Below, piece after piece: positions 1 through 22,189 of a stretch of DNA of 51,563 nt (its first letter is position 1; each line of letters starts with the position of its first letter). The stretch is from Eubacteriales bacterium (GTDB lineage Bacteria; Bacillota; Clostridia; Oscillospirales; CAG-382). Where the stretch lies: NCBI GenBank assembly GCA_045596605.1, contig JAZOCR010000159.1:1-51563 (forward strand), given 5' to 3'. The notes under the pieces are model-generated. The model was given only the letters and a program-made list of their open reading frames with translations, was not told the origin of the DNA and did no database searches. Both the position numbers and the translations under genes were made by a program.

Positions 1-882
1 GCTCGAATCTTGCGCGACATCACGTTCCTTTTTACAAGCAAAATGTTTCTCCTCTAAAACCTCGTTTGCTGCCGTTCTGACAATAATAGATTTTACGAGT
101 TTATCTAACTCTGAACCATCAGTATAATCAGTAGGTGTAAAATATTTAATACGGTTATCGGCTAACATCTGAAATGCTTTGCTTTTATCCAATGTACTAT
201 TGTCATAAACAGCTATGGAATGACCACCGTTAGCATTAACCAACTTCATACACGGAATATCCGTCATACTATCGCCTATATAAACAATGTTTCTGAACGG
301 AACACGAATCTTCTCAGGCTCAAAGTAGTCATTTACACCGGAATCGTTTACGTCTAACACGCCTTTTTCAATTCTAAACAGAAATTGTGTTTTGTTTGTG
401 TAATTGATGGCTTGCGCAGGCCAAATAGGTACATCCGCTTTATCAAACAAAAAGGAACTTGCATATATTTGTTCAAACTCTTTTGCTATGGCTGTTCCCT
501 CAATCATCTCTTTAAGCCCCGAAGATATGATATAATGCTCGACAATAACATTGTGTTGTCTGCCAAAATCCCTGATTCGCTCAAACCATCCCTCGACTCC
601 GGGGAACAATTTTACTTTGGCACCGTACTCCCTTAATGTTTTTCTTGTTAGCACAATACGCCCATGCGCGTGTTCCATCATTTTGCGCATATAGGCTAAA
701 TTGGAGTCCATTTCATTATTTTCTGCCAACTCCTTACACTCATCCCAAAATGCTTGTACATCATCGCCGAAAACCTCTTGAATATATCCCTGCGCCTGCA
801 TATCGTCGGGAGATAAGGTTTTATCAAAATCATAGCAAATTGCTAATACGGGCTTATCTTCTTTGGTACGTCTTTCAAGCAT
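1..882 (-). CDS. HAD-superfamily hydrolase (HAD-IB / phosphoserine-phosphatase-like); the C-terminal end runs off the window
   Basis: Absent from the ORF track because it has no stop inside the window. My reverse-strand translation from the ATG at 882..880 stays open to position 1 (294 codons): MLERRTKEDKPVLAICYDFDKTLSPDD... HAD motif I is DFDKT, and there is a motif IV-like GDSMTDIPCM. The SD-like GGTGAGGTGAG lies just upstream and is formed by the hsdS-end remnant. Confidence 0.8.
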   Translation of the reverse strand, partial: MLERRTKEDKPVLAICYDFDKTLSPDDMQAQGYIQEVFGDDVQAFWDECKELAENNEMDSNLAYMRKMMEHAHGRIVLTRKTLREYGAKVKLFPGVEGWFERIRDFGRQHNVIVEHYIISSGLKEMIEGTAIAKEFEQIYASSFLFDKADVPIWPAQAINYTNKTQFLFRIEKGVLDVNDSGVNDYFEPEKIRVPFRNIVYIGDSMTDIPCMKLVNANGGHSIAVYDNSTLDKSKAFQMLADNRIKYFTPTDYTDGSELDKLVKSIIVRTAANEVLEEKHFACKKERDVAQDSS

Positions 883-892
883 TATTCTCACC

Positions 893-950
893 TCACCCAA
901 AATATTTTTGCATCAACGCCATTCAGCGTTTCAAGCTTTTCAGCCCTCTT
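893..950 (-). repeat. Decayed copy (R3) of the hsdS 3' terminus, including its stop codon
   Basis: 893-919 matches the real hsdS end (3792-3818) at 26 of 27 positions. Weaker similarity continues for about 30 nt more, with an indel. Read on the minus strand it gives ..KRAEKLETLN / ALMQKYFG-stop, against hsdS ..KSLEKLEMLKKALMQKYFG-stop. The spurious plus-strand ORFs show the same peptide, HPKYFCINA, at both places. Confidence 0.8.
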
Positions 951-1040
951 AATTATACCATTTCATTTTATATGTAATATTTTCTACTCCGAGATTGCAA
1001 CGTGTGCGAACGAAGCAAAGTCGGAAAAGTTTTTATAAAA

Positions 1041-2354
1041 TCAAAATAGGTTATAAGCTTCCTTTTTCGATGCATTATGTTCGTCAACAAATTCGTCATC
1101 AAAGCAATCTGAATAATATTTTTGCGCCATTCGTTGCTCTACAGAGCGATTAAGAATTGCTGCATTACTTGTAGATAAATTAGCTATTCTAAAAGCTGAC
1201 ATAAAAAAATATATCCCTTTTTCAATAATAATTTTACCAATTAGTTCATCTGCAAAAGAAGAACTAATTAAATTAACACCAGAAAAGTCTAAAATAACAA
1301 TCTTTTTCTTATCAATTACAATATTCATTGCCATATTTCTAAGTTTTATAGCAGATTGTCTTGTTCCAGTTCCCCCGTACATTTCTGAAACTTGAATAAT
1401 ATACGCATTGCCACTTTCATTTTCAATATTTTCTAACCAAAAATCTATAGGCGTATGCCCGCCTAACGCATGTGTGATGTCAATTTTTTTGTCATAATTA
1501 ATAGAAACATCTACACATGCAGTGCCATTTCTTTTATCAATAATAAAGCCACCTTCTTTTTTTGTTACAGTTTCCGATTTATAACATCTATATACTGCAC
1601 CACCAGAAGAAATAGTCATTACTCCCATAGATTCACTAACGATACTTGACAACCCCCACAATCCATTACCTTGCCCTATGCGATCGTCTCGTGTTACCTT
1701 TTCCTGAAGAGCAAGTGTAATGGCATCAATTGGCTGCTCTGGGTGATATCTTGAATCTTTTAATGAATTGTATAGTCCCATACCCGAATCAAAAACGCAG
1801 AAAGTAAATGCTTTTGTTTGATTATAAATCTGTGCCATCACATATCCTTTAGAAGTTCCTGAGTGTTGAAGCACATTATCCATCACTTCATTTAAACACC
1901 ATTCAATACTACTGATTACTCCAGCTTCAACAATATCACTTTTTCTAAGTTCTAAAACAAATGCGGAAACTAATTTACACACCCCTTCGCCGGTTTCAAA
2001 TGTCCAAACCTTATCAAAAGGATAATCTATGTCAGAATTAGAACAAGATTCTACAGACAACGGATTCCAAAACCTTGTGTGTCTCACATAGTCATTTGAC
2101 GTATGCTCTATATGGATACGTATTCCCTTCTCCCTATAACGATCTAAAAGGCACGCCAGCGGAGCGCAAACATTGGCGTTGGTTCCTCTTTTCGTTGGAT
2201 TCACTTCGATAATTAGATACGAATATCCCTTTTTTATATGATTCTCAATCCATTTATAGACCTTTCCCACTTGAGAATAATGATCCAACATCAAATTAAA
2301 AACAGGAATTTTTTTATTATTGTTATTATTCTTTTTCGTTTTTCTATTTGACAT
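1041..2354 (-). CDS. GHKL (SpoIIAB/RsbW-like) ATPase/kinase domain fused to a C-terminal STAS-like domain, with an unassigned N-terminal region of about 150 aa
   Basis: 437 aa ORF with SD GAGGTG. Bergerat-fold boxes appear in order: N-box EWCLNEVMDNVLQHS, G1 FCVFDSGMGLYN, G2 RIGQGNGLWGL. The C-terminus KKIVILDFSGVNLISSSFADELIGK resembles STAS-like domains (DUF4325 type, from memory). Confidence 0.7.
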   Translation of the reverse strand: MSNRKTKKNNNNNKKIPVFNLMLDHYSQVGKVYKWIENHIKKGYSYLIIEVNPTKRGTNANVCAPLACLLDRYREKGIRIHIEHTSNDYVRHTRFWNPLSVESCSNSDIDYPFDKVWTFETGEGVCKLVSAFVLELRKSDIVEAGVISSIEWCLNEVMDNVLQHSGTSKGYVMAQIYNQTKAFTFCVFDSGMGLYNSLKDSRYHPEQPIDAITLALQEKVTRDDRIGQGNGLWGLSSIVSESMGVMTISSGGAVYRCYKSETVTKKEGGFIIDKRNGTACVDVSINYDKKIDITHALGGHTPIDFWLENIENESGNAYIIQVSEMYGGTGTRQSAIKLRNMAMNIVIDKKKIVILDFSGVNLISSSFADELIGKIIIEKGIYFFMSAFRIANLSTSNAAILNRSVEQRMAQKYYSDCFDDEFVDEHNASKKEAYNLF

Positions 2355-2447
2355 TTAACACCTCGCAAAAACATTTTTGCTTCAATAGCTTTTTAGAATT
2401 TCTAACTTTTTAAGATTTTTTCGAACGCATTTTCTCTTTTCTCAATT

Positions 2448-3062
2448 CTATCCTCTGGTAGAAAAATAAGTTATTAATGCAGCTATAGCTGCGGTTAACA
2501 AATACCATATTCCATTTGAAAGGATATTTTGCATTACTGCAATAAAACATTGCTTAAATTTTGAATCTTTCCTTGACGTATTCATATTTACGTTTGAACT
2601 TTGAGAAATCACCGTGTTATTATCCCCATGATTAATCGTTCCATTGTTTAAGTTCTTGATATTTATTTGAGATTCGATATATGTTACCTGTAATTCATCT
2701 TGTTCATCTATAGATGTTTTTTCCAAAATATTTGAGAAACTTTGGAGCTCAACTCTACTATCAGCGCTTATAGAGAGCTCAGTTAAATAATTAAAATAAA
2801 TTTTCTTTTTTTCAACAGAAATATTCCCAGCAAACGAAACCAAACTATAACCAGTCGAGCCATATGTAATCTCACAAAATTCTTGTATGCTATTTACATC
2901 ACACGTTATATCACCTAAATTAAACAAGAAATTCACTGATATGATTGTTTTATCACCGCCCCATTTTCTGGCACTTTTTTCTATCCACTCATAAGTTCTT
3001 TTTGTTTCTTCGAAAGTATCTATTCCATATTTTAATTCAATTTTTTTACTAAAACTTGCCAT
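2448..3062 (-). CDS. Hypothetical tail-anchored membrane protein: soluble N-domain, Asn/Ser-rich linker and a single C-terminal TM helix
   Basis: 204 aa ORF with a strong SD (AAGGAGA) before the ATG. The C-terminal hydrophobic stretch is IWYLLTAAIAALITYF. I recognise no catalytic motif. Confidence 0.7.
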   Translation of the reverse strand: MASFSKKIELKYGIDTFEETKRTYEWIEKSARKWGGDKTIISVNFLFNLGDITCDVNSIQEFCEITYGSTGYSLVSFAGNISVEKKKIYFNYLTELSISADSRVELQSFSNILEKTSIDEQDELQVTYIESQINIKNLNNGTINHGDNNTVISQSSNVNMNTSRKDSKFKQCFIAVMQNILSNGIWYLLTAAIAALITYFSTRG

Positions 3063-3081
3063 ATTTTCTCCTTATATTCAT

Positions 3082-3119
3082 TCACCCAAAATATTTCTGC
3101 ATCAACGCCTTCACACAAC
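3082..3119 (-). repeat. Copy (R2) of the hsdS 3' terminus, including its stop codon
   Basis: 3082-3108 is identical (27/27) to 3792-3818. It reads ..VK-ALMQKYFG-stop on the minus strand. About 8 more nt of similarity (CTTCA.CA) follow after a 3-nt gap. It sits between the stop of ORF 3120..3779 and the SD of ORF 2448..3062. Confidence 0.85.
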
Positions 3120-3779
3120 TTAAAACATATTATTTTTTAATTGCATCAAATCAAACGATTTGTTAATCATAGCACTATAGAACTCAGGCATTAATAATGT
3201 TAATAACTTATAGATGTCCGTCAAGATTTGCGCATAGTTATCATAAGTTTCTCGGCTTCTATCTACAGAATTTTTATCACCAACAATATCACCTAACTCT
3301 ATCAAAAGTTTGCAAAATTCACCATCTCTATCCTTTGTATGACCATTCCTTTTATCATCAACAATGGCAAGATAGAAATGATAACTATAACCAAGCTCAA
3401 TATATATGTGTTGTACTTCAGCATCTGATAATTCTTTGTTTTTTAAAATGTCCCCAATTCTTCCTATTACATTTTCGGTTCTCTTATAAAATTCCTTATA
3501 GTTATCTTTTTGTTCGGTTGTTGAGTATTCGTCATATGTTTTCAATCCCGAGATCAAGAAGAAAACAAATCCGGTTACAATACCAGCACTAACACTACAA
3601 AAAAATGAAGACCACACACCTGATGTTACGAACATTAAAACCGTTGTAACAATGAATGCAAAAAAAGAAATAATACACGCCCTTACATATTTGAACTTTA
3701 TTATCAGATTACAGAAAATCAACCTTGAAATCTTTTTTGGGGATTTCGAATTTGCAGCTAAATCTTCCAACCAGTTCAT
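3120..3779 (-). CDS. Hypothetical membrane protein: two N-terminal TM helices and a helical cytoplasmic C-domain of about 140 aa
   Basis: Track ORF is 3120..3788. I prefer the ATG at 3779 (MNWLEDL..), which lies 8 nt after GGTGAGGAG and 12 nt after the hsdS stop. TM segments are ACIISFFAFIVTTVLMFV and FCSVSAGIVTGFVFFLISGL. No recognisable motif. Confidence 0.7.
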   Translation of the reverse strand: MNWLEDLAANSKSPKKISRLIFCNLIIKFKYVRACIISFFAFIVTTVLMFVTSGVWSSFFCSVSAGIVTGFVFFLISGLKTYDEYSTTEQKDNYKEFYKRTENVIGRIGDILKNKELSDAEVQHIYIELGYSYHFYLAIVDDKRNGHTKDRDGEFCKLLIELGDIVGDKNSVDRSRETYDNYAQILTDIYKLLTLLMPEFYSAMINKSFDLMQLKNNMF

Positions 3780-3791
3780 TTCAAACACTCC

Positions 3792-4907
3792 TCACCCAAA
3801 ATATTTCTGCATCAACGCTTTCTTCAGCATTTCAAGTTTTTCAAGACTCTTTTGAATTTCCAATTTTGATTTGTCGGTCTGTTCGACAAAAACAATATAG
3901 TCCTTTTGTAATTTAATTGGTGGAATAATCTGCATATATGCTTTCATAATTGCAGTATTCAAATTAGGTTGCGTACCAGCTGGTGCTATTGCTCTGAAAT
4001 GCTCTGTCATTTGATTCAACGCTTGCAATAAAAATACTTTATCTAACCTATTATCTATATTTTCCATCGCAAGCCAACCATCGTGAATACATCCATCAAA
4101 AGTAATTATTCTTGCAAATCCAAGAGAAACTCCACAATTTGCAAAGATTAAACTACCTTTTTTTACTAAACGACTCTTTCTTACACCCTCTTGGATAATA
4201 TGTTCTTTCGTAGCGTGCAGATAGACATTATCACCTTTTGTTGCATCCCCAATCTTAATCCAAGGAATCGTTCCACCTAAATACTGCTCAATAGGTCTTG
4301 GAGAACCACCTCTCGAAATATCACACAGATTGCCAAGAGGTTCTATATCCCACCCTTTATCATTTACATTTATATCCCCAAACAGTTCGACAAATCGTGC
4401 TTTGACAAGCTCGTCAATTTTTGAGAGTTGCTGTTTGCGGAGAGAAATCAAATGACTTACCATATCCAATTCATTGGCGATTTTCTTTTGCACCTCAATA
4501 TTTGGCAAATAAAATGAAAGAGCATCAAAAATTGGCTTTGTCAAGTGTTTCATAGTTGCACCATGCACCTCACTGGAAGCATTATTCAAAATACTTTCCA
4601 CTTGATGCACAAAGAAGCTTGTGTCAACTTCCGCTTTATCGAATATCACTTTAAAAATGTGCTGATTCAGGACAGCCTTTTCCCCCGCCCACACATATAC
4701 ACCAAGACTTGCTGACCAAGAGATAAGTACGTCTCCACAGTTCACCTCATACCTTGCGTCATATTTGCCATTATATCGATTTGCTTGATATGAATTTCCA
4801 GTTAAATCTTGAATGCGAATAATTGGAACACCTTCGCTTGACCAATCTGTTGGCTTGAAAGCATAACCATTAATATATGTTGCAATATCACCTAACCTCG
4901 CCATCAT
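3792..4907 (-). CDS. hsdS: Type I restriction-modification specificity subunit HsdS (two target-recognition domains)
   Basis: N-terminus MMARLGDIATYINGYAFKP. The second TRD starts at LGNLCDISRGGSPRP. The central spacer LRKQQLSKIDELVKARFVELFG and the C-terminal spacer LEKLEMLKKALMQKYFG are the duplicated conserved helices typical of HsdS. The likely start ATG(ATG) at 4907/4904 overlaps the upstream stop (ATGA); the track ORF extends to 4985. Confidence 0.9.
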   Translation of the reverse strand: MMARLGDIATYINGYAFKPTDWSSEGVPIIRIQDLTGNSYQANRYNGKYDARYEVNCGDVLISWSASLGVYVWAGEKAVLNQHIFKVIFDKAEVDTSFFVHQVESILNNASSEVHGATMKHLTKPIFDALSFYLPNIEVQKKIANELDMVSHLISLRKQQLSKIDELVKARFVELFGDINVNDKGWDIEPLGNLCDISRGGSPRPIEQYLGGTIPWIKIGDATKGDNVYLHATKEHIIQEGVRKSRLVKKGSLIFANCGVSLGFARIITFDGCIHDGWLAMENIDNRLDKVFLLQALNQMTEHFRAIAPAGTQPNLNTAIMKAYMQIIPPIKLQKDYIVFVEQTDKSKLEIQKSLEKLEMLKKALMQKYFG

Positions 4908-5251
4908 AAAAACCTCTCTTTCATCCATATACAGCCACATATCAAAACAATTATTACAATCACTACAATGAGAATCCACCACCACGCAAAAGAGAAAATT
5001 CCCATTAAAGCCAACACACCAGTAATTGCCGCATTTGCAACTAAGTACAATAGACTACCCAATGCTGGAAAGTCACCTCTATGATATACCAAATGTACCA
5101 AAGCAAACGCCACTACATGGATAATCGGTTCAGAAATCCAGTTTATCAAAACTGCATTATCACCAAAGCATTCAAAAGGGTTTGGCAAATAGAATTGTCG
5201 AACAATTACACTGAGCGTTGCCATTATTCCATATAAAGATAATCTTCTCAC
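4904..5251 (-). CDS. Small hypothetical membrane protein (about 3 TM helices) lying between hsdM and hsdS
   Basis: 115 aa ORF that fills the whole hsdM-hsdS gap. Its GTG start overlaps the hsdM stop (GTGA); an alternative ATG is at 5224. Its stop overlaps the hsdS start (ATGA). Hydrophobic segments are IIHVVAFALVHLVY, LGSLLYLVANAAITGVLALMGIF and WWWILIVVIVIIVLICGCIW. Confidence 0.6.
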   Translation of the reverse strand: MRRLSLYGIMATLSVIVRQFYLPNPFECFGDNAVLINWISEPIIHVVAFALVHLVYHRGDFPALGSLLYLVANAAITGVLALMGIFSFAWWWILIVVIVIIVLICGCIWMKERFL

Positions 5252-6804
5252 AACAATTCCTCCAACTCATCCAGTCCCTTTGTAATTTCCATTTCAAGCT
5301 CGTGAAGGTCTGCCATAATTTCAGCAGTTGATGGATATTCTACGGGCTTATATTCGGTCTTTTTGTACTTGTTGATTGAAAGGTCATAGTCGTTTTCTAC
5401 TATCTCCTCTTTGGGAACAAAGAAGGATTTATCCGTGCGCTCTCTTGCAGATTCAGGGATAAATGGTGTATCCGGAACAAAAGCATCGCTTGGTGCAGAA
5501 GAAGGTAAATTCTCTGCAAAACGCAAATGGAATCTATTTATAATATCGGGTATATCATTTTCTGAAACTGGGCTTCTCTTATCGTCAAGAGAAAATCCGT
5601 CTGCCTGCATATCGTAGAACCAAATGTTATCTGTTCCGCCGTGTCCTGTTTTGGTAAATACAAGTATAGCAGTAGAAACACCGGAATAGGGTTTAAACAC
5701 GCCTGAAGGCATAGAAACAACTGCTTCAAGACGGTTGTTTTCAATAATTTCCTTGCGGATTGCTTTGTGGGCAGTTGAAGAACCGAAAAGCACTCCATCA
5801 GGAACAATACAAGCACATCTTCCGCCAACCTTAAGCATACGCAAAAACAGTGTGAGGAACAGAAGCTCTGTCTTTTTTGTTTTACAGATTTTAAGTAAAT
5901 CGGTAGATACTATGTCATAGTCAAGGCTTCCCTTAAAAGGCGGGTTTGCAAGAATAAGGGAATATTTTTCCCTATCTGAATTCTGGTCGGAAAGGCTGTC
6001 ACGATACTCAATAAAGGGGCTATCAATGCCGTGGGTCATCATATTCATCGCACCGATACGGAGCATAGTTCTATCCATATCGTAGCCGAAGAACATAGAA
6101 TTCATATAGTGGTCTTTTTTTATCTTATTATAAAAAATCTCTTCCTTGTGATTTTCTTTCAAGTACTCACCCGCAGCTACAAGGAAACCGCTCGTTCCAC
6201 ACGCTGGGTCGCATATATTGTCGTCCGGCTTTGGCTGCATCATAGTTACCATCATTTTGATTATGTGTCTGGGCGTTCTGAACTGACCGTTAAGACCTGA
6301 TTGTGCAATTTTGTTCAAAAGATATTCGTATACGTCACCTCTTACGTCATTATCAGATGAAATCTTCATCATTTCATAGATATCGTCAAGGCAGGTTACT
6401 ACCTTATCAAGAAGAAGAGGAGTAGGAATTTTAAAAATTGCATCGTCCATATATTTTGAATAAGCGCTATCCTTGTCTGCGTGCAGATTCTTTATAAAAG
6501 GAAAAACCCATTCCTGCATAACGGAATACATCTTGCCGGCAGGAAAGTCACGAAAAGTTGACCACTTGAGCTGGTTTCCGTCAATGGTACGCTCCCCAAT
6601 TGTAACTTCTGATGCAAAAATGCTGTTATGAGGAAGACCAAGCATTGCACTCTCTTTTGCGCGAAGGTTGTCTGTATCGTCAAGGTCGTGGATAAACATC
6701 AAATAAGTAATTTGCTCAATTACGTCAAGGGGGTTAACAAGTCCACCTGAAGCAAATATATCCCAAAGTCCGTCTATCTTGTTTTTAAGTTCGCCTGTAA
6801 TCAT
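5248..6804 (-). CDS. hsdM: Type I restriction-modification N6-adenine DNA methyltransferase subunit HsdM
   Basis: AdoMet motif I is DPACGTSGFL and catalytic motif IV is LANPPF. The N-terminus is HsdM-like (LWDIFASGG..QITYLMF). The likely start is the ATG at 6804 (MITGELKNK), 1 nt after the fic stop; the track ORF extends to 6852. Confidence 0.95.
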   Translation of the reverse strand: MITGELKNKIDGLWDIFASGGLVNPLDVIEQITYLMFIHDLDDTDNLRAKESAMLGLPHNSIFASEVTIGERTIDGNQLKWSTFRDFPAGKMYSVMQEWVFPFIKNLHADKDSAYSKYMDDAIFKIPTPLLLDKVVTCLDDIYEMMKISSDNDVRGDVYEYLLNKIAQSGLNGQFRTPRHIIKMMVTMMQPKPDDNICDPACGTSGFLVAAGEYLKENHKEEIFYNKIKKDHYMNSMFFGYDMDRTMLRIGAMNMMTHGIDSPFIEYRDSLSDQNSDREKYSLILANPPFKGSLDYDIVSTDLLKICKTKKTELLFLTLFLRMLKVGGRCACIVPDGVLFGSSTAHKAIRKEIIENNRLEAVVSMPSGVFKPYSGVSTAILVFTKTGHGGTDNIWFYDMQADGFSLDDKRSPVSENDIPDIINRFHLRFAENLPSSAPSDAFVPDTPFIPESARERTDKSFFVPKEEIVENDYDLSINKYKKTEYKPVEYPSTAEIMADLHELEMEITKGLDELEELL

Positions 6805-6805
6805 T

Positions 6806-7885
6806 TTAATAGTCCTCTCTATTCCAAATATAGGAAGTATATCTTCCTCCACTGAGCTTAATTATTTTTCCTTTTTTAAGAAGGTCATTCAGCGTCCTTT
6901 GCACTGTTGTTTCACTTATATCGGGGCATTTGTTTATAATATCCTGCTTGGTTACCTTGCCAAGTGTATCTTCAATGGTTTTTGCAACTATTTCAGGCTT
7001 TGAAAGCTTACTTTCAATTATCATCTGAACTCGGTTTGCAAATTCTCTGTGAGCTGAAAGAATAACAGAAAGCATATATTTAACAAAAGGTGCATAATCG
7101 TTTTGATTTTCGTGCCATCCATATGAGCTTTTCTGAAGAGCATCGTAGTAATTGTCCTTTGTGGTTTCAATAAGCTTCTCTATACTGATATATTTACCCA
7201 CAATATAACCACTACGGTAAAGCAGTAAAAGTGTAAGCAGTCTGCTCATTCGTCCGTTGCCGTCGTTAAATGGATGTATGCACAAAAAATCAAGTACGAA
7301 CATAGGGATTGCGAGGAGCGGATTTATAGCTTCTAATGCAATTGCCTCGTTATATGCCGCACAGAGATTTTCTATACTCTCCGGTACTTCCCATGCCTCT
7401 ACCGGTTGGAAACGAACAAATCTGTTACCCTGTGCATCTTCTTCGGCTATAACATTGTCAACATTCTTGTACTGACCACCGTATGTTACTGTATTAAATC
7501 TATATAAATCTCTGTGAAGCTGTAAAATAATGTTGGGTTTTACCGGAATTCCGTCGTGGTTAGTGTGGATTGTATTCAGAACATCACGATAGCCTGCGAT
7601 TTCCTCTTCCGCTCTGTTCATAGGGTTGGTTTTTGATAACGCCAGCTTCTTGATTCTTTCGTCAGAAGTATATATACCTTCTATTTTATTGGATGCTTCC
7701 GTACTCTGTATTTTTGCAATATCAACAAGACTTGTAAGTACATCAACACTTGATTCTATAAATGAATTCTGTTTTCCTTTGTATTCGTGAATCTGCGTAA
7801 GCATCGAAACAATGTCAGGCGTTAAAAACTGCTCCCATTTATTTTTATAATTGTATACTCTCATAAGGCTCTCCTTTCGACGCAA
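6806..7885 (-). CDS. fic: Fic-family protein (AMPylase-type) with an intramolecular inhibitory helix and a C-terminal winged-helix-like domain
   Basis: Fic motif HPFNDGNGRMSR. The N-terminal SNKIEG fits the (S/T)xxxE(G/N) inhibitory motif (class II arrangement). The C-terminus KQDIINKCPDISETTVQRTLNDLLKKGKI looks like a wHTH. SD AAAGGAGAG precedes the ATG. Confidence 0.93.
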   Translation of the reverse strand: MRRKESLMRVYNYKNKWEQFLTPDIVSMLTQIHEYKGKQNSFIESSVDVLTSLVDIAKIQSTEASNKIEGIYTSDERIKKLALSKTNPMNRAEEEIAGYRDVLNTIHTNHDGIPVKPNIILQLHRDLYRFNTVTYGGQYKNVDNVIAEEDAQGNRFVRFQPVEAWEVPESIENLCAAYNEAIALEAINPLLAIPMFVLDFLCIHPFNDGNGRMSRLLTLLLLYRSGYIVGKYISIEKLIETTKDNYYDALQKSSYGWHENQNDYAPFVKYMLSVILSAHREFANRVQMIIESKLSKPEIVAKTIEDTLGKVTKQDIINKCPDISETTVQRTLNDLLKKGKIIKLSGGRYTSYIWNREDY

Positions 7886-7910: not shown

Positions 7911-7939
7911 ATTATACAATACAATTATGCCTTTGTCAA
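7911..7939 (-). promoter_or_regulatory. Sigma-A type promoter for the fic-hsd operon: TTGACA, 17-nt spacer, TATAAT
   Basis: The minus strand reads TTGACAaaggcataattgtattgTATAAT. The -10 ends about 25 nt upstream of the fic ATG. Confidence 0.6.
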
Positions 7940-8976: not shown

Positions 8977-9054
<78 letters not shown>

Positions 9055-9082
9055 ATATATTTAATTTCGATTTCCGATTTTG

Positions 9083-9171
9083 TGGTGCCGGAAACCGGGC
9101 TCGAACCGGTACGGGAGGTTAGTCCCACGGGATTTTAAGTCCCGGGCGTCTGCCAATTTCGCCACTCCGGC
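9083..9171 (-). tRNA. tRNA-Leu (UAA)
   Basis: Minus strand: GCCGGAGTGGCGAAATTGGCAGACGCCCGGGACTTAAAATCCCGTGGGACTAACCTCCCGTACCGGTTCGAGCCCGGTTTCCGGCACCA. It has a long variable arm, anticodon loop CT-TAA-AA and an encoded CCA. Confidence 0.93.
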
Positions 9172-19031: not shown

Positions 19032-20492
19032 TTATTCAGCAGGAGCTTCTTCCGTTGCATCGGAAACAGAGTAAAGCTCAACAAGATCGGCAATTTTATC
19101 TTCCCAAGTGCCCTTGTTGGTAGCAATAAGGGAAGAAAGTGTGTTGCCCTGGTTTGCTTTAATAATACTGTATCCGTCGAAACCTATAACTGCATCGTTA
19201 AATCTTGAAGAGTTTCTGATAATCGGAATCATGTCCTCAGATTCTGTATCTCTTGTAGACTTGATAGTAAGAAGCGTATCAAAGTATGCGGGCATTATCA
19301 TTTTATTTGAGTAATATGCCATTGTTTCAAGAACAGCACCCGTCTTTTCAAGATCCATATTTGTAATCGGAATCATTGTAAGTTCAGAAATACCACCGCT
19401 TCTTGAATAGTATTCAGTCTGGCTTTCATCATATTTAGGATAAGGAATGAATCCTACATCAATATTCTCATACTCTCTTGTGCCGGGAATATGGAGAATA
19501 AAGGAGTCGTTAAAGAGAAGTCTGCCTTCTGCAAACATATTGTCGTCAAGGCCGAAAGTCTGAGTTTCCCAGAAAGCACCGGGGTTACGGAATACGTCTA
19601 TCATAGCATCAATTACGTTATAGATATGCTCATTTTCAATATTAAGAACAGGCATATTGTTGTCGTCCTTAACAACAGTCTGAGCACCGTAGCCTATGTA
19701 GAATGCAGGAATTCCTTCATATCCCCAACAGCCGTAACCGTATCTGTCGTCAGCTGTCTTCATCTTACCGTCACCGTTAAGGTCCTTGGTAGCTGCCTGA
19801 ACATATTGAACGAATTTGTCGTGTGTCCATGTTCCTTCAAATACCATATCGTAGGGATATTCAAGGCCAAGCTCGTTGCAAAGAGTTTTGTTGAAGATAA
19901 GACATGCGGTTGTTGAGAAGGAGGTGAGGTTATAATCACCTGTCATTGCATAAATCTTGCCGCCGTATGTAATATCACGTGCAACGTTGGAATACCACCA
20001 GGGGCTTTCAACATTGATATAAGGAATATTATTCCAGTCTACAAGAAGCTTTTCCTGAATAAGAGTAGGAGTCTGATGCTGACAGTGTACGTATGCGTCA
20101 TACGTGTTGTCACCGCCCATGATGAGAATTCTTATTCTATCAGTTTCATTTGTCTGGTCAGAGCCGTTTGTCGTACCGGTTGTTATACCAAATTCAAGAT
20201 CAACGCCAAGATGCTCTTCCACCTTCATATTTCTCTGGAATACAACGTCATTCATCTCGTCGCCGGTTTCCTCTTCAATCATATAGGAATCCTTTGCTGT
20301 CGGAAACGCAAGATATATACTGAAGGTCTCGCCTTCAAGAATACCCTCAGGAACAATAAACTCTCCCGCTTCACCACGCTTCATTTCAGAGTCGCCATTT
20401 TTACCTTTGCTGTCCTTGTTACAGGAAACAAAAGAAGAAGCAAGAAGAACGCCTGAAAGAAGAAGCGCAACAATTCTCTTTGTGTTTTTCAT
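19032..20492 (-). CDS. Extracellular solute-binding lipoprotein, paralog 1 (ABC-type family-1-like, no cognate permease adjacent)
   Basis: Lipobox signal peptide MKNTKRIVALLLSGVLLASSFVSC. At 486 aa the size and composition are typical of sugar-binding lipoproteins. The family call comes from general resemblance only. Confidence 0.65.
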   Translation of the reverse strand: MKNTKRIVALLLSGVLLASSFVSCNKDSKGKNGDSEMKRGEAGEFIVPEGILEGETFSIYLAFPTAKDSYMIEEETGDEMNDVVFQRNMKVEEHLGVDLEFGITTGTTNGSDQTNETDRIRILIMGGDNTYDAYVHCQHQTPTLIQEKLLVDWNNIPYINVESPWWYSNVARDITYGGKIYAMTGDYNLTSFSTTACLIFNKTLCNELGLEYPYDMVFEGTWTHDKFVQYVQAATKDLNGDGKMKTADDRYGYGCWGYEGIPAFYIGYGAQTVVKDDNNMPVLNIENEHIYNVIDAMIDVFRNPGAFWETQTFGLDDNMFAEGRLLFNDSFILHIPGTREYENIDVGFIPYPKYDESQTEYYSRSGGISELTMIPITNMDLEKTGAVLETMAYYSNKMIMPAYFDTLLTIKSTRDTESEDMIPIIRNSSRFNDAVIGFDGYSIIKANQGNTLSSLIATNKGTWEDKIADLVELYSVSDATEEAPAE

Positions 20493-20728: not shown

Positions 20729-22189
20729 TTATTCAGCAGCTTCGCCCTCTGCGGGAGCTTTATCAGGGCTGTAAAGATCAATAAGTCCCTGTATTTTTTC
20801 CTCCCACGCTCCTCTGTTCTGTGCAATAAGGGAAGAAAGAGTATTACCGGAGTTTGCAGTTACTATGCTGTATCCGTCAAAATTAATAACAGCATCCGCA
20901 AATCTTGCAGAGTTTCTTATAATCGGAATCATATCCTCGGACTCAGTATCTCTTGTCGACTTAATCATAACGAGAGTGTCAAAGTATGCAGGCATTACCG
21001 TCTGATTTGAGAAATACGCCATTGTTTCAAGAACTGCAGCCGTCTTTTCAAGGTCTGTATTTGTAATCGGAATAACGGTAAGCTCTGATATACCGCCAGT
21101 TCTGCTGTAGTATTCAGACTGACTTTCGTTGTATTTAGGATAAGGTATAAAGCCTACGTCAAACTCCTCATATTTTCTCGTTGAAGGAATGTGATAAATA
21201 AAGGAATCATTAAACAGAAGTCTGCCTTCCATGAACATATTATCATCTACACCGAATTCTGATCTCTCCCAGAAAGCACCGCTTTGCCTGAATATTTCAA
21301 GCATTTTATCAATGACGTTATACGTATGCTCATTGTCAATGTTAAGAACAGGCATGTTATTGTCATCTTTAATAATTGCTTCTGCACCGTAGCTTACGAA
21401 AAATCCGGGAATTCCTTCATATGCCCAACAGCCGTAGCCATATCTGTCCTCATCTCTCGTCATTCTGCCGTCACCGTTAAGGTCCTTGGTAGCCGCCTGA
21501 ACGTATTCAATGAATTTGTCGTGCGTCCACGTTCCGTCATACACCATTTCGTAAGGGTATTCAAGGCCGAGCTCGTCGCACATTGTCTTATTAAAGATAA
21601 GGCAAGCGGTAGTTGAGAAGGATGTAAGGTTATAGTCACCCGTCATTCCGTATATTTTATCACCAAAGGTAATATCACGGGCAACATTGGAATACCACCA
21701 GGGGCTTTCAACGTTGATATAAGGAAGCTCGTTCCAGTTAACGAAAAGCTTGTCGCCCATAAGTTGACTCTGTAGAGAATTCTGGCAATGAACAAAAACG
21801 TCGTAAGTAGTATCCCCACCCATAATGAGAACTCTGATAAGGTTAGAGGAAGCAAGAATATCATTTCCCCACGTAGAACCGGTGGTTACACCGAACTCCA
21901 GATCCACACCGAGATACTCCTCAACCTTCTGGTTTCTCCTGAATACAACGTCATTCATCTCGTCGCCGGTTTCCTCCTCGGCAACAAATGAAGACTTGCA
22001 GCTTGGATAAGCAAGGTATGCTGTAAATGTCTTTTCCTCACAAGCTCCCTCGGGTACAATAAATTCTCCCGGTTCGCCGTGAAGTCCGTCTCCGCTTTTT
22101 CCGGATTTATTCTCATTACAGGATGCGAAGGATGAAATAAGTAAAAGCCCGGAAATAAGAATTGTTAAAATTCTTGTGAGTTTTTTCAT
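20729..22189 (-). CDS. Extracellular solute-binding lipoprotein, paralog 2
   Basis: Signal peptide/lipobox MKKLTRILTILISGLLLISSFASC. It is collinear with paralog 1 over its full length. Confidence 0.65.
   Translation of the reverse strand: MKKLTRILTILISGLLLISSFASCNENKSGKSGDGLHGEPGEFIVPEGACEEKTFTAYLAYPSCKSSFVAEEETGDEMNDVVFRRNQKVEEYLGVDLEFGVTTGSTWGNDILASSNLIRVLIMGGDTTYDVFVHCQNSLQSQLMGDKLFVNWNELPYINVESPWWYSNVARDITFGDKIYGMTGDYNLTSFSTTACLIFNKTMCDELGLEYPYEMVYDGTWTHDKFIEYVQAATKDLNGDGRMTRDEDRYGYGCWAYEGIPGFFVSYGAEAIIKDDNNMPVLNIDNEHTYNVIDKMLEIFRQSGAFWERSEFGVDDNMFMEGRLLFNDSFIYHIPSTRKYEEFDVGFIPYPKYNESQSEYYSRTGGISELTVIPITNTDLEKTAAVLETMAYFSNQTVMPAYFDTLVMIKSTRDTESEDMIPIIRNSARFADAVINFDGYSIVTANSGNTLSSLIAQNRGAWEEKIQGLIDLYSPDKAPAEGEAAE

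Follow-up and report, generated by a model that had tools for sequence, protein, structure and literature searches.

Two pairs of a kinase and a STAS-domain substrate are the closest described systems to the gene analysed here, and such a pair was shown only in 2026 to be a DNA-damage-sensing switch for immune operons and a toxin (Chambers et al., EMBO J 2026; PMC13373217). CapK, a kinase of helix-turn-helix (HTH)-STAS-GHKL architecture, is switched on by single-stranded DNA (ssDNA) and phosphorylates Ser54 of CapS, a STAS-winged helix-turn-helix (wHTH) protein, upon which the repressor dissociates, and the CapK/CapS pair is often found beside restriction-modification (R-M) systems (88 of 443 loci; PMC13373217). 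VapS, a STAS protein, binds and inhibits the toxin VapC, its phosphomimetic S48E variant neither binds nor counteracts VapC, and VapK (STAS-GHKL) is the proposed kinase of VapS Ser48, a direct test having been impossible there; vapKSC protects E. coli against a phage (PMC13373217). Kinase-substrate fusions are not mentioned in that work, and a full-text literature search returned no paper joining ‘STAS-like’ with ‘phage defense’. Here we analysed a stretch of 51,563 nucleotides (nt) from contig JAZOCR010000159.1 (the window, whose positions are used for all coordinates below), and in particular a gene for a protein of 437 amino acids (aa) close to its start. With a probability of roughly 60%, this gene occupies the hsdS-to-hsdR cargo slot of a Fic–hsdM–hsdS–…–hsdR operon in the chromosome of an uncultured gut Clostridia bacterium, and encodes a VapK/CapK-type kinase fused to a VapS-type substrate.

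The gene and the parts of its product, which we call a K-S fusion, are located as follows.

1041-2354, minus strand: the 437-aa gene, with STAS-like, GHKL and DUF4325/STAS domains on a single chain
1995-2312, minus strand: N-terminal STAS-like domain, about aa 15-120, with an NVCAP motif opening the second helix (AlphaFold2 model and alignment with VapK)
1455-1991, minus strand: ATP-binding domain of GHKL type (Bergerat fold), about aa 122-300, holding the N-box residues E156, N160 and H164, the G1 box D189-G193 and the G2 box G227-G234
1104-1406, minus strand: C-terminal DUF4325 STAS-like domain, about aa 317-417, with a conserved GTGTR loop and a helix starting SSSFADELIGK
1260-1262, minus strand: codon of Ser365, the predicted phospho-acceptor, which aligns with VapS Ser48 at the start of helix 365-379

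The AlphaFold2 model of the protein, made with a 24-sequence alignment, has a predicted local distance difference test score (pLDDT) of 85 and a predicted template modelling score (pTM) of 0.84. It shows an N-terminal alpha/beta domain in the order beta-alpha-beta-alpha-beta, then a Bergerat fold, then a STAS-like domain, after which the chain ends with one helix. Pfam identifies DUF4325 (‘STAS-like domain’) at aa 335-396 (43.3 bits against a cutoff of 23, E = 3 × 10−11), in agreement with an earlier account of this DNA (the original prediction) that had proposed a C-terminal STAS-like domain. The three GHKL boxes named there are likewise present (N-box NEVMDNVLQHS, aa 155-165; G1 DSGMG, aa 189-193; G2 GQGNGLWG, aa 227-234), and for the SpoIIAB/RsbW-type GHKL domain that they were taken to form, Pfam alone is weak and the AlphaFold2 model together with GHKL matches in Foldseek backs the assignment. 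We counted conservation in an alignment of 192 full-length family members across phyla, in which the key residues of the boxes are 100% conserved: E156, D159, N160 and H164 are invariant in the N-box, D189, G191 and G193 in G1, and G227-G231, W233 and G234 in G2. Invariant residues of the C-terminal domain are G328, G330 and R332 in the GTGTR loop, and Ser365 (192 of 192), Ser366, D369, E370 and K374. Ser365 begins its helix in the model, as the phospho-sites of STAS domains do.

When the family profile was compared with the PDB, it gave one meaningful match, 9Z7O (‘Escherichia VapS’, E = 3.5 × 10−4). For further profile comparison, the VapK and VapS sequences were taken from the supplementary model files of PMC13373217. 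hhalign matched the family to the VapK family (974 clusters) with a probability of 90% (E = 1.7 × 10−6), with 203 colinear columns over the N-terminal STAS-like and GHKL domains (family aa 40-252 against VapK 31-254), and to VapS with a probability of 79% (E = 1.6 × 10−5) over aa 347-406, with VapS Ser48 falling on Ser365. VapS is a DUF4325 protein itself (62.7 bits, E = 2.7 × 10−17). As in kinases of the VapK/CapK type, a STAS-like domain lies directly N-terminal to the GHKL domain, and the ATP boxes are intact, including the catalytic Asn (N218 in CapK). From the alignments with VapK and VapS it would follow that the 437-aa protein is a VapK-like kinase plus a VapS-like substrate on a single chain, and on this comparison of sequences we read it as a putative switch of the CapK/CapS–VapK/VapS kind in which kinase and substrate are fused. 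The observation in the original prediction that a kinase/ATPase-type domain and a target domain share one chain with no sigma factor nearby is thus borne out. Its suggestion that the N-terminus could be a sensor is reasonable, because the STAS domain of VapK/CapK, to which this second STAS-like domain is homologous, forms a predicted ssDNA-sensing groove. Pfam detects no HTH in the 437-aa protein.

Several observations weigh against this reading. Pairwise BLASTP between the 437-aa protein and VapK is not significant (E = 1.5), the homology resting on the profile comparison at 90%. The aromatic residue that contacts ssDNA (CapK W68, VapK F54) has no clear counterpart in the 437-aa family: VapK F54 aligns beside a gap column, and family position 59 is Tyr or Phe in 156 of the 192 members and Asn in the window protein. 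The Pfam model HATPase_c_2 matches at E = 8.6 × 10−4 and 19.8 bits, under its cutoff of 27.4, and the GHKL models are all under their cutoffs. No effector domain was found in the protein and no conserved neighbour in 79 genomes, many family members lie among plain housekeeping genes, and hsdR, which synteny leads us to expect beyond the window start, is absent from the window. Finally, the whole-chain Foldseek search against the PDB places the ATPase domains of GyrB, ParE and Hsp90 first (E about 3 × 10−4), not kinases; these are matches to generic GHKL domains, between which a structure search does not separate kinase from ATPase.

The structural matches favour an alternative, in which the GHKL domain belongs with the ATPases of GyrB/Hsp90/MORC type and not with the protein kinases, DUF4325 is a binding module and Ser365 is structural. 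Two further points count for it: the G2 box (IGQGNGLWG), which we take to resemble the IGQFG motifs of Hsp90/MORC type, and GHKL ATPases in R-M contexts, which Iyer et al. reportedly predicted in 2008. We nevertheless consider it unlikely, as the N-box form E-x3-N-x3-H is common to the 437-aa protein and VapK (EIYANSFEHS in the latter) and its His164 is 100% conserved, among the GHKL models of Pfam the SpoIIAB-type HATPase_c_2 fits best, and the best sequence-level GHKL match in the PDB is a sensor kinase (3EHG, a weak match with E = 0.21). The colinearity with VapK, moreover, includes the preceding STAS domain, and an invariant Ser stands exactly at the acceptor position of VapS.

If the fused protein is a kinase-substrate switch, analogy with the described systems suggests how it would act. 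An infection or DNA-damage signal (ssDNA in CapK, where this is experimental) would activate the kinase half, which would phosphorylate Ser365, either in cis or across a dimer, and the phosphorylation would switch the binding of the STAS domain to a target protein. Both trigger and target are thus put forward by analogy only. No conserved neighbour encodes a target; in the clade embedded in R-M operons, the R-M motor HsdR may be a speculative candidate.

PADLOC, which the original prediction had proposed to run, matched the 437-aa protein with one model only, DrmA PDLC02567, and with the N-terminal module of that model only: the first ~410 of its 1750 positions are colinear with the entire protein (positions ~51-405, E about 1 × 10−28; the PADLOC match covers positions 128-412). 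We therefore rejected DrmA as the identity of the protein. The match implies, from the profile alone, that a DrmA subfamily may carry the K-S module at its N-terminus. One could go further and propose that the phospho-switch directly gates superfamily 2 (SF2) restriction motors, HsdR in the type I operons that hold the gene and DrmA in the fused forms, and that phosphorylation of Ser365, set off by ssDNA or another infection cue, would thereby raise or lower restriction activity; we regard this extension as rather unlikely.

The 437-aa family is large and uncharacterised. It comprises 1044 clusters (at 90% identity) with E ≤ 1 × 10−3, which carry the source names ‘STAS-like’ or ‘DUF4325 domain-containing protein’, and its members come from Bacillota, Bacteroidota, Cyanobacteria, Planctomycetota, Chloroflexota, Actinomycetota and further phyla. 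Neither Pfam and PADLOC searches of 142 flanking genes nor all-against-all clustering of 732 neighbours revealed a conserved neighbour, the largest neighbour cluster being present at 8 of 79 loci. Among the Clostridia relatives, embedding in type I R-M operons is repeated. Elsewhere, one homologue is located on an element resembling an integrative and conjugative element (ICE), beside ParA/ParB and RadC, another has GmrSD, DndB and a type III R-M system as neighbours, and two distant homologues lie beside a Cas9-like gene with RuvC_III and HNH_4 domains (L027, 9611-13288) and a type IIG Eco57I/TaqI_C enzyme (L019, 3872-7714), respectively. The two halves also occur as split pairs, K of about 298 aa and S (DUF4325) of about 100 aa, in Streptococcus phage phiGBSVK-D beside paratox (L182, 2569-3758) and on the Alicyclobacillus plasmid pAACI02 (L183, 540-1748). 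Phages encode many free DUF4325 proteins, and the phage protein family phrog_3364 matches aa 43-264 of the 437-aa protein (E = 2.5 × 10−24). A full-length fused homologue of 31% identity is encoded directly before an hsdM-like ORF (open reading frame) in GenBank entry MT837999, labelled ‘Bacteriophage sp.’ (L184, 4280-7112); this entry may be mislabelled as phage, or phages may carry the module along with R-M genes.

These contexts bear on two other explanations. According to the first, the protein works for mobile elements and not for host defence, for instance as an anti-restriction factor or as a regulator that tunes or silences R-M or other host pathways, which would be in keeping with homologues on the ICE-like element and on phage-labelled contigs, with split K and S pairs in prophage moron regions beside paratox, and with the free phage DUF4325 proteins and the PHROG families that match the 437-aa protein. 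However, in several lineages the gene is stably embedded on the sense strand of a host R-M operon, with a stop/start overlap with hsdR, the related VapKSC defends against phage, and among the neighbours of the family are genes for Cas9, for type IIG and type III R-M and for GmrSD, so that this explanation, too, appears improbable to us. According to the second, the protein has a housekeeping role and regulates, by partner switching, a sigma factor whose gene lies elsewhere in the genome. Its architecture is indeed like that of SpoIIAB/RsbW joined to SpoIIAA/RsbV, but the distribution of the family is patchy, its neighbourhoods vary by genome and include mobile-element and defence contexts, and no sigma factor or PP2C phosphatase recurs nearby, all of which makes such a role highly improbable.

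At the window start, the fused kinase-substrate gene belongs to one array of genes that runs on the minus strand from a Fic gene to a HAD-family ORF. The other features of this array are given below in the direction of transcription.

7911-7939, minus strand: sigma-70-type consensus promoter TTGACA-17-TATAAT, matching at 12 of 12 positions and lying upstream of Fic
6806-7885, minus strand: Fic-domain gene (SoFic-like), first gene of the operon, identified by Pfam/PADLOC
5248-6852, minus strand: hsdM, type I methyltransferase, identified by Pfam/PADLOC
4904-5251, minus strand: membrane ORF of 115 aa with about three transmembrane (TM) segments and no family match
3792-4985, minus strand: hsdS, type I specificity subunit, identified by Pfam/PADLOC; the relics come from its last ~70 nt
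3120-3788, minus strand: 222-aa protein with N-terminal TM segments, a further single-gene cassette, flanked by the hsdS end and the relic at 3082-3112
3082-3112, minus strand: relic of the hsdS 3' end, 31 nt that share 97% identity with the real hsdS end and lie upstream of the 204-aa gene
2448-3062, minus strand: 204-aa tail-anchored protein, a cargo cassette of its own
about 2358-2425, minus strand: decayed relic of the hsdS 3' end between the 204-aa and 437-aa genes, ending in GAGGTG 5 nt before the 437-aa ATG
891-950, minus strand: relic of the hsdS 3' end, ~60 nt, following the 437-aa gene and preceding the HAD-family ORF
1-882, minus strand: HAD-family hydrolase ORF, the next cassette after the relic at 891-950, starting at 882 and running past the window start

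The SoFic model of PADLOC strongly matches the Fic gene (2.2 × 10−41), which overlaps the start of hsdM, and Fic is the first gene of the same operon type in several other loci, too. We found no terminator-like site between the genes downstream of the promoter at 7911-7939, and the slot genes are probably co-transcribed from this one promoter. The 437-aa gene therefore has the features of embedded type I R-M cargo, namely the same strand, a position downstream of hsdM and hsdS, one promoter and no intergenic terminators, and the original prediction was right to place it inside a type I R-M operon. That such operons carry embedded cargo is already established (PrrC, TgvAB; ‘guilt by embedding’, Payne et al. 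2024). In syntenic loci of other genomes, hsdR comes directly after the slot. Another variable slot is found between hsdM and hsdS; it is occupied by the 115-aa ORF here and by 158-aa, 167-aa, 198+58-aa or RhuM genes in syntenic loci. The 222-aa protein has no match in Pfam, PADLOC, NCBIfam or PHROG, and NCBIfam returned nothing useful for the three cargo proteins. Genes for tRNA-Met and tRNA-Leu (8977-9171, minus strand) directly adjoin the R-M island, where they may indicate a hotspot for insertions. Beyond the tRNAs, the rest of the window holds ordinary chromosome genes (FtsW, Mur ligases, a penicillin-binding protein, pyruvate formate-lyase, LepA). LepA shares no more than 78% identity with any species representative. 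Two tandem paralogues of 486 aa each (19032-20492 and 20729-22189, minus strand) are 71% identical to each other, and have lipoprotein-like N-termini and no Pfam match.

A real or relic hsdS 3' end that terminates in a GAGG-type ribosome-binding site precedes every gene of the slot. The real hsdS end is at 3792-3822, and local alignment of the three intergenic regions to it gave scores of 29, 25 and 40, compared to 8-9 ± 1.6 in shuffled sequence; none of 2000 shuffles reached the observed score for any of the three regions. For the decayed relic at 2358-2425, the score was 25, vs. 8.8 ± 1.6 in the shuffles (0 of 2000). Because each slot gene has its own real or relic hsdS 3' end in front, each is its own cassette, and the slot is a stack of single-gene cassettes that encode, in order, the 222-aa, the 204-aa and the 437-aa proteins and the HAD hydrolase. 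In one syntenic slot (L088, 7706-9254), the space from hsdS to hsdR is occupied by a tyrosine recombinase gene and half an hsdS gene in direct orientation, which suggests that the relics derive from extra hsdS copies, and hints that cassettes can be excised or exchanged through recombination between hsdS copies.

The relics also bear on the relation between the 437-aa gene and the adjacent 204-aa gene. Both ORFs are real, lie on the minus strand and are separated by 93 nt, and the original prediction had taken them for a two-gene defence module in a cassette bounded by hsdS tails, with the 204-aa protein as membrane effector and the 437-aa protein as its sensor or regulator. The tails are real. 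The single two-gene cassette is not, since a further relic, that at 2358-2425, lies between the two genes, and the pair is therefore not one remnant-bounded cassette. Of the 104 loci that we fetched, none of the 94 with a 437-aa homologue carries the 204-aa gene, and none of the 10 with a 204-aa homologue carries the 437-aa gene, an outcome on which the prediction itself had proposed to give up the module. At 79% identity, the homologue nearest to the 437-aa protein is encoded in the order hsdM–158 aa–hsdS–[gene]–hsdR, where its gene overlaps hsdR by 4 nt and no 204-aa gene is present, and a 59%-identical homologue has the same hsdS-[gene]-hsdR layout. The 204-aa gene, for its part, has homologues in the same slot of the same operon type with different neighbours (210+178-aa genes, an integrase gene and hsdS', or a DUF2806 gene), and in other loci two hsdS tails flank it alone. 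The 437-aa and 204-aa genes are two separate cargo genes and not a two-gene defence system. The case for such a system consists of their adjacency on one strand in this window and of the shape of the 204-aa protein, which is compatible with a membrane effector; set against these arrangements in other genomes, it is very unlikely.

That shape agrees with its first description, in that a confidently folded soluble N-domain (aa 1-118) is followed by a disordered Asn/Ser-rich linker (aa 122-166) and a C-terminal helix (aa 169-203) that holds a hydrophobic segment. The 204-aa protein has no match in Pfam, PADLOC, NCBIfam or PHROG, and nothing significant in Foldseek (best E = 0.02, template modelling score about 0.2, CYTH-like). 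A weak match to Mlp (E = 0.023) was rejected as noise. Its family is small, with 16 clusters in an indexed search and 94 representatives in an exhaustive HMMER search. The tail-anchored protein is encoded by an unrelated, independently assorting cargo gene of the same slot as the 437-aa gene.

As both halves of the predicted switch are on one chain, in a family of more than 1000 clusters with no linked effector, the question arises what such a standalone switch controls. Its repeated placement just before hsdR, together with the fusion in the DrmA subfamily suggested by the profile, offers a testable lead, the phospho-regulation of restriction motors. If motors were indeed gated by phosphorylation of Ser365, this would constitute a hitherto undescribed layer of post-translational control for R-M and DISARM. 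The relic-marked stack of cassettes shows how cargo builds up in a type I R-M operon, and is a warning against taking adjacent genes in such slots for one system.

How the locus stands to known systems can be set out in order. The original prediction could assign it to no named system; the nearest named ones are now CapK/CapS and VapK/VapS/VapC, published in 2026, whose defining features at the level of the system (a substrate encoded by its own gene, and either a PIN toxin or a wHTH) are lacking here. The likeness to vapKSC consists of the colinear STAS and GHKL domains of VapK and of the DUF4325 domain of VapS, with its acceptor Ser48 on Ser365. The differences are that kinase and substrate are separate genes there, the substrate immediately downstream, whereas here they form one polypeptide; that no VapC/PIN gene is adjacent (no PIN match among the window genes at 1-7885); that no target is evident here for the C-terminal inhibitory region of VapS type; and that sequence identity is only about 20% and the ssDNA-stacking Phe54 has no clear equivalent. 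The scheme of CapK-CapS, in which a GHKL kinase with a STAS domain before it phosphorylates its STAS-domain substrate at a Ser on helix 2, is also the one predicted for the 437-aa protein. Here, however, the kinase half lacks an HTH and the STAS half lacks a wHTH, and hence the 437-aa protein is not a DNA-binding repressor; CapK-CapS, furthermore, lies upstream of an abortive-infection operon, whereas the 437-aa gene lies inside an R-M operon. SpoIIAB-SpoIIAA and RsbW-RsbV resemble it in kinase type, in their STAS substrate and in the phospho-Ser, here a predicted one, at the N-terminus of helix alpha-2, and differ from the fused chain with its extra N-terminal STAS domain, its HATPase_c_2 score below cutoff, and its operon with no sigma factor gene and no phosphatase nearby.

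The DISARM protein DrmA has in common with the K-S fusion the N-terminal part of PDLC02567, which is colinear with the whole of it, but the 437-aa protein has no helicase part and no DISARM genes nearby. Embedded genes of the PrrC/TgvAB type are alike in being cargo between hsd genes on the same strand; they belong to other cargo families, and here the cargo forms stacked single-gene cassettes, each marked by an hsdS 3' relic. In the split K and S pairs, the same two halves follow each other in the same order, in overlapping or adjacent genes with no PIN or wHTH; these are two genes vs. one here, and none of the pairs is characterised. Taken together, these comparisons indicate that the parts of the protein are known, and now understood from the 2026 systems, and that what is new is the presence of both halves, without a linked effector, on one chain.

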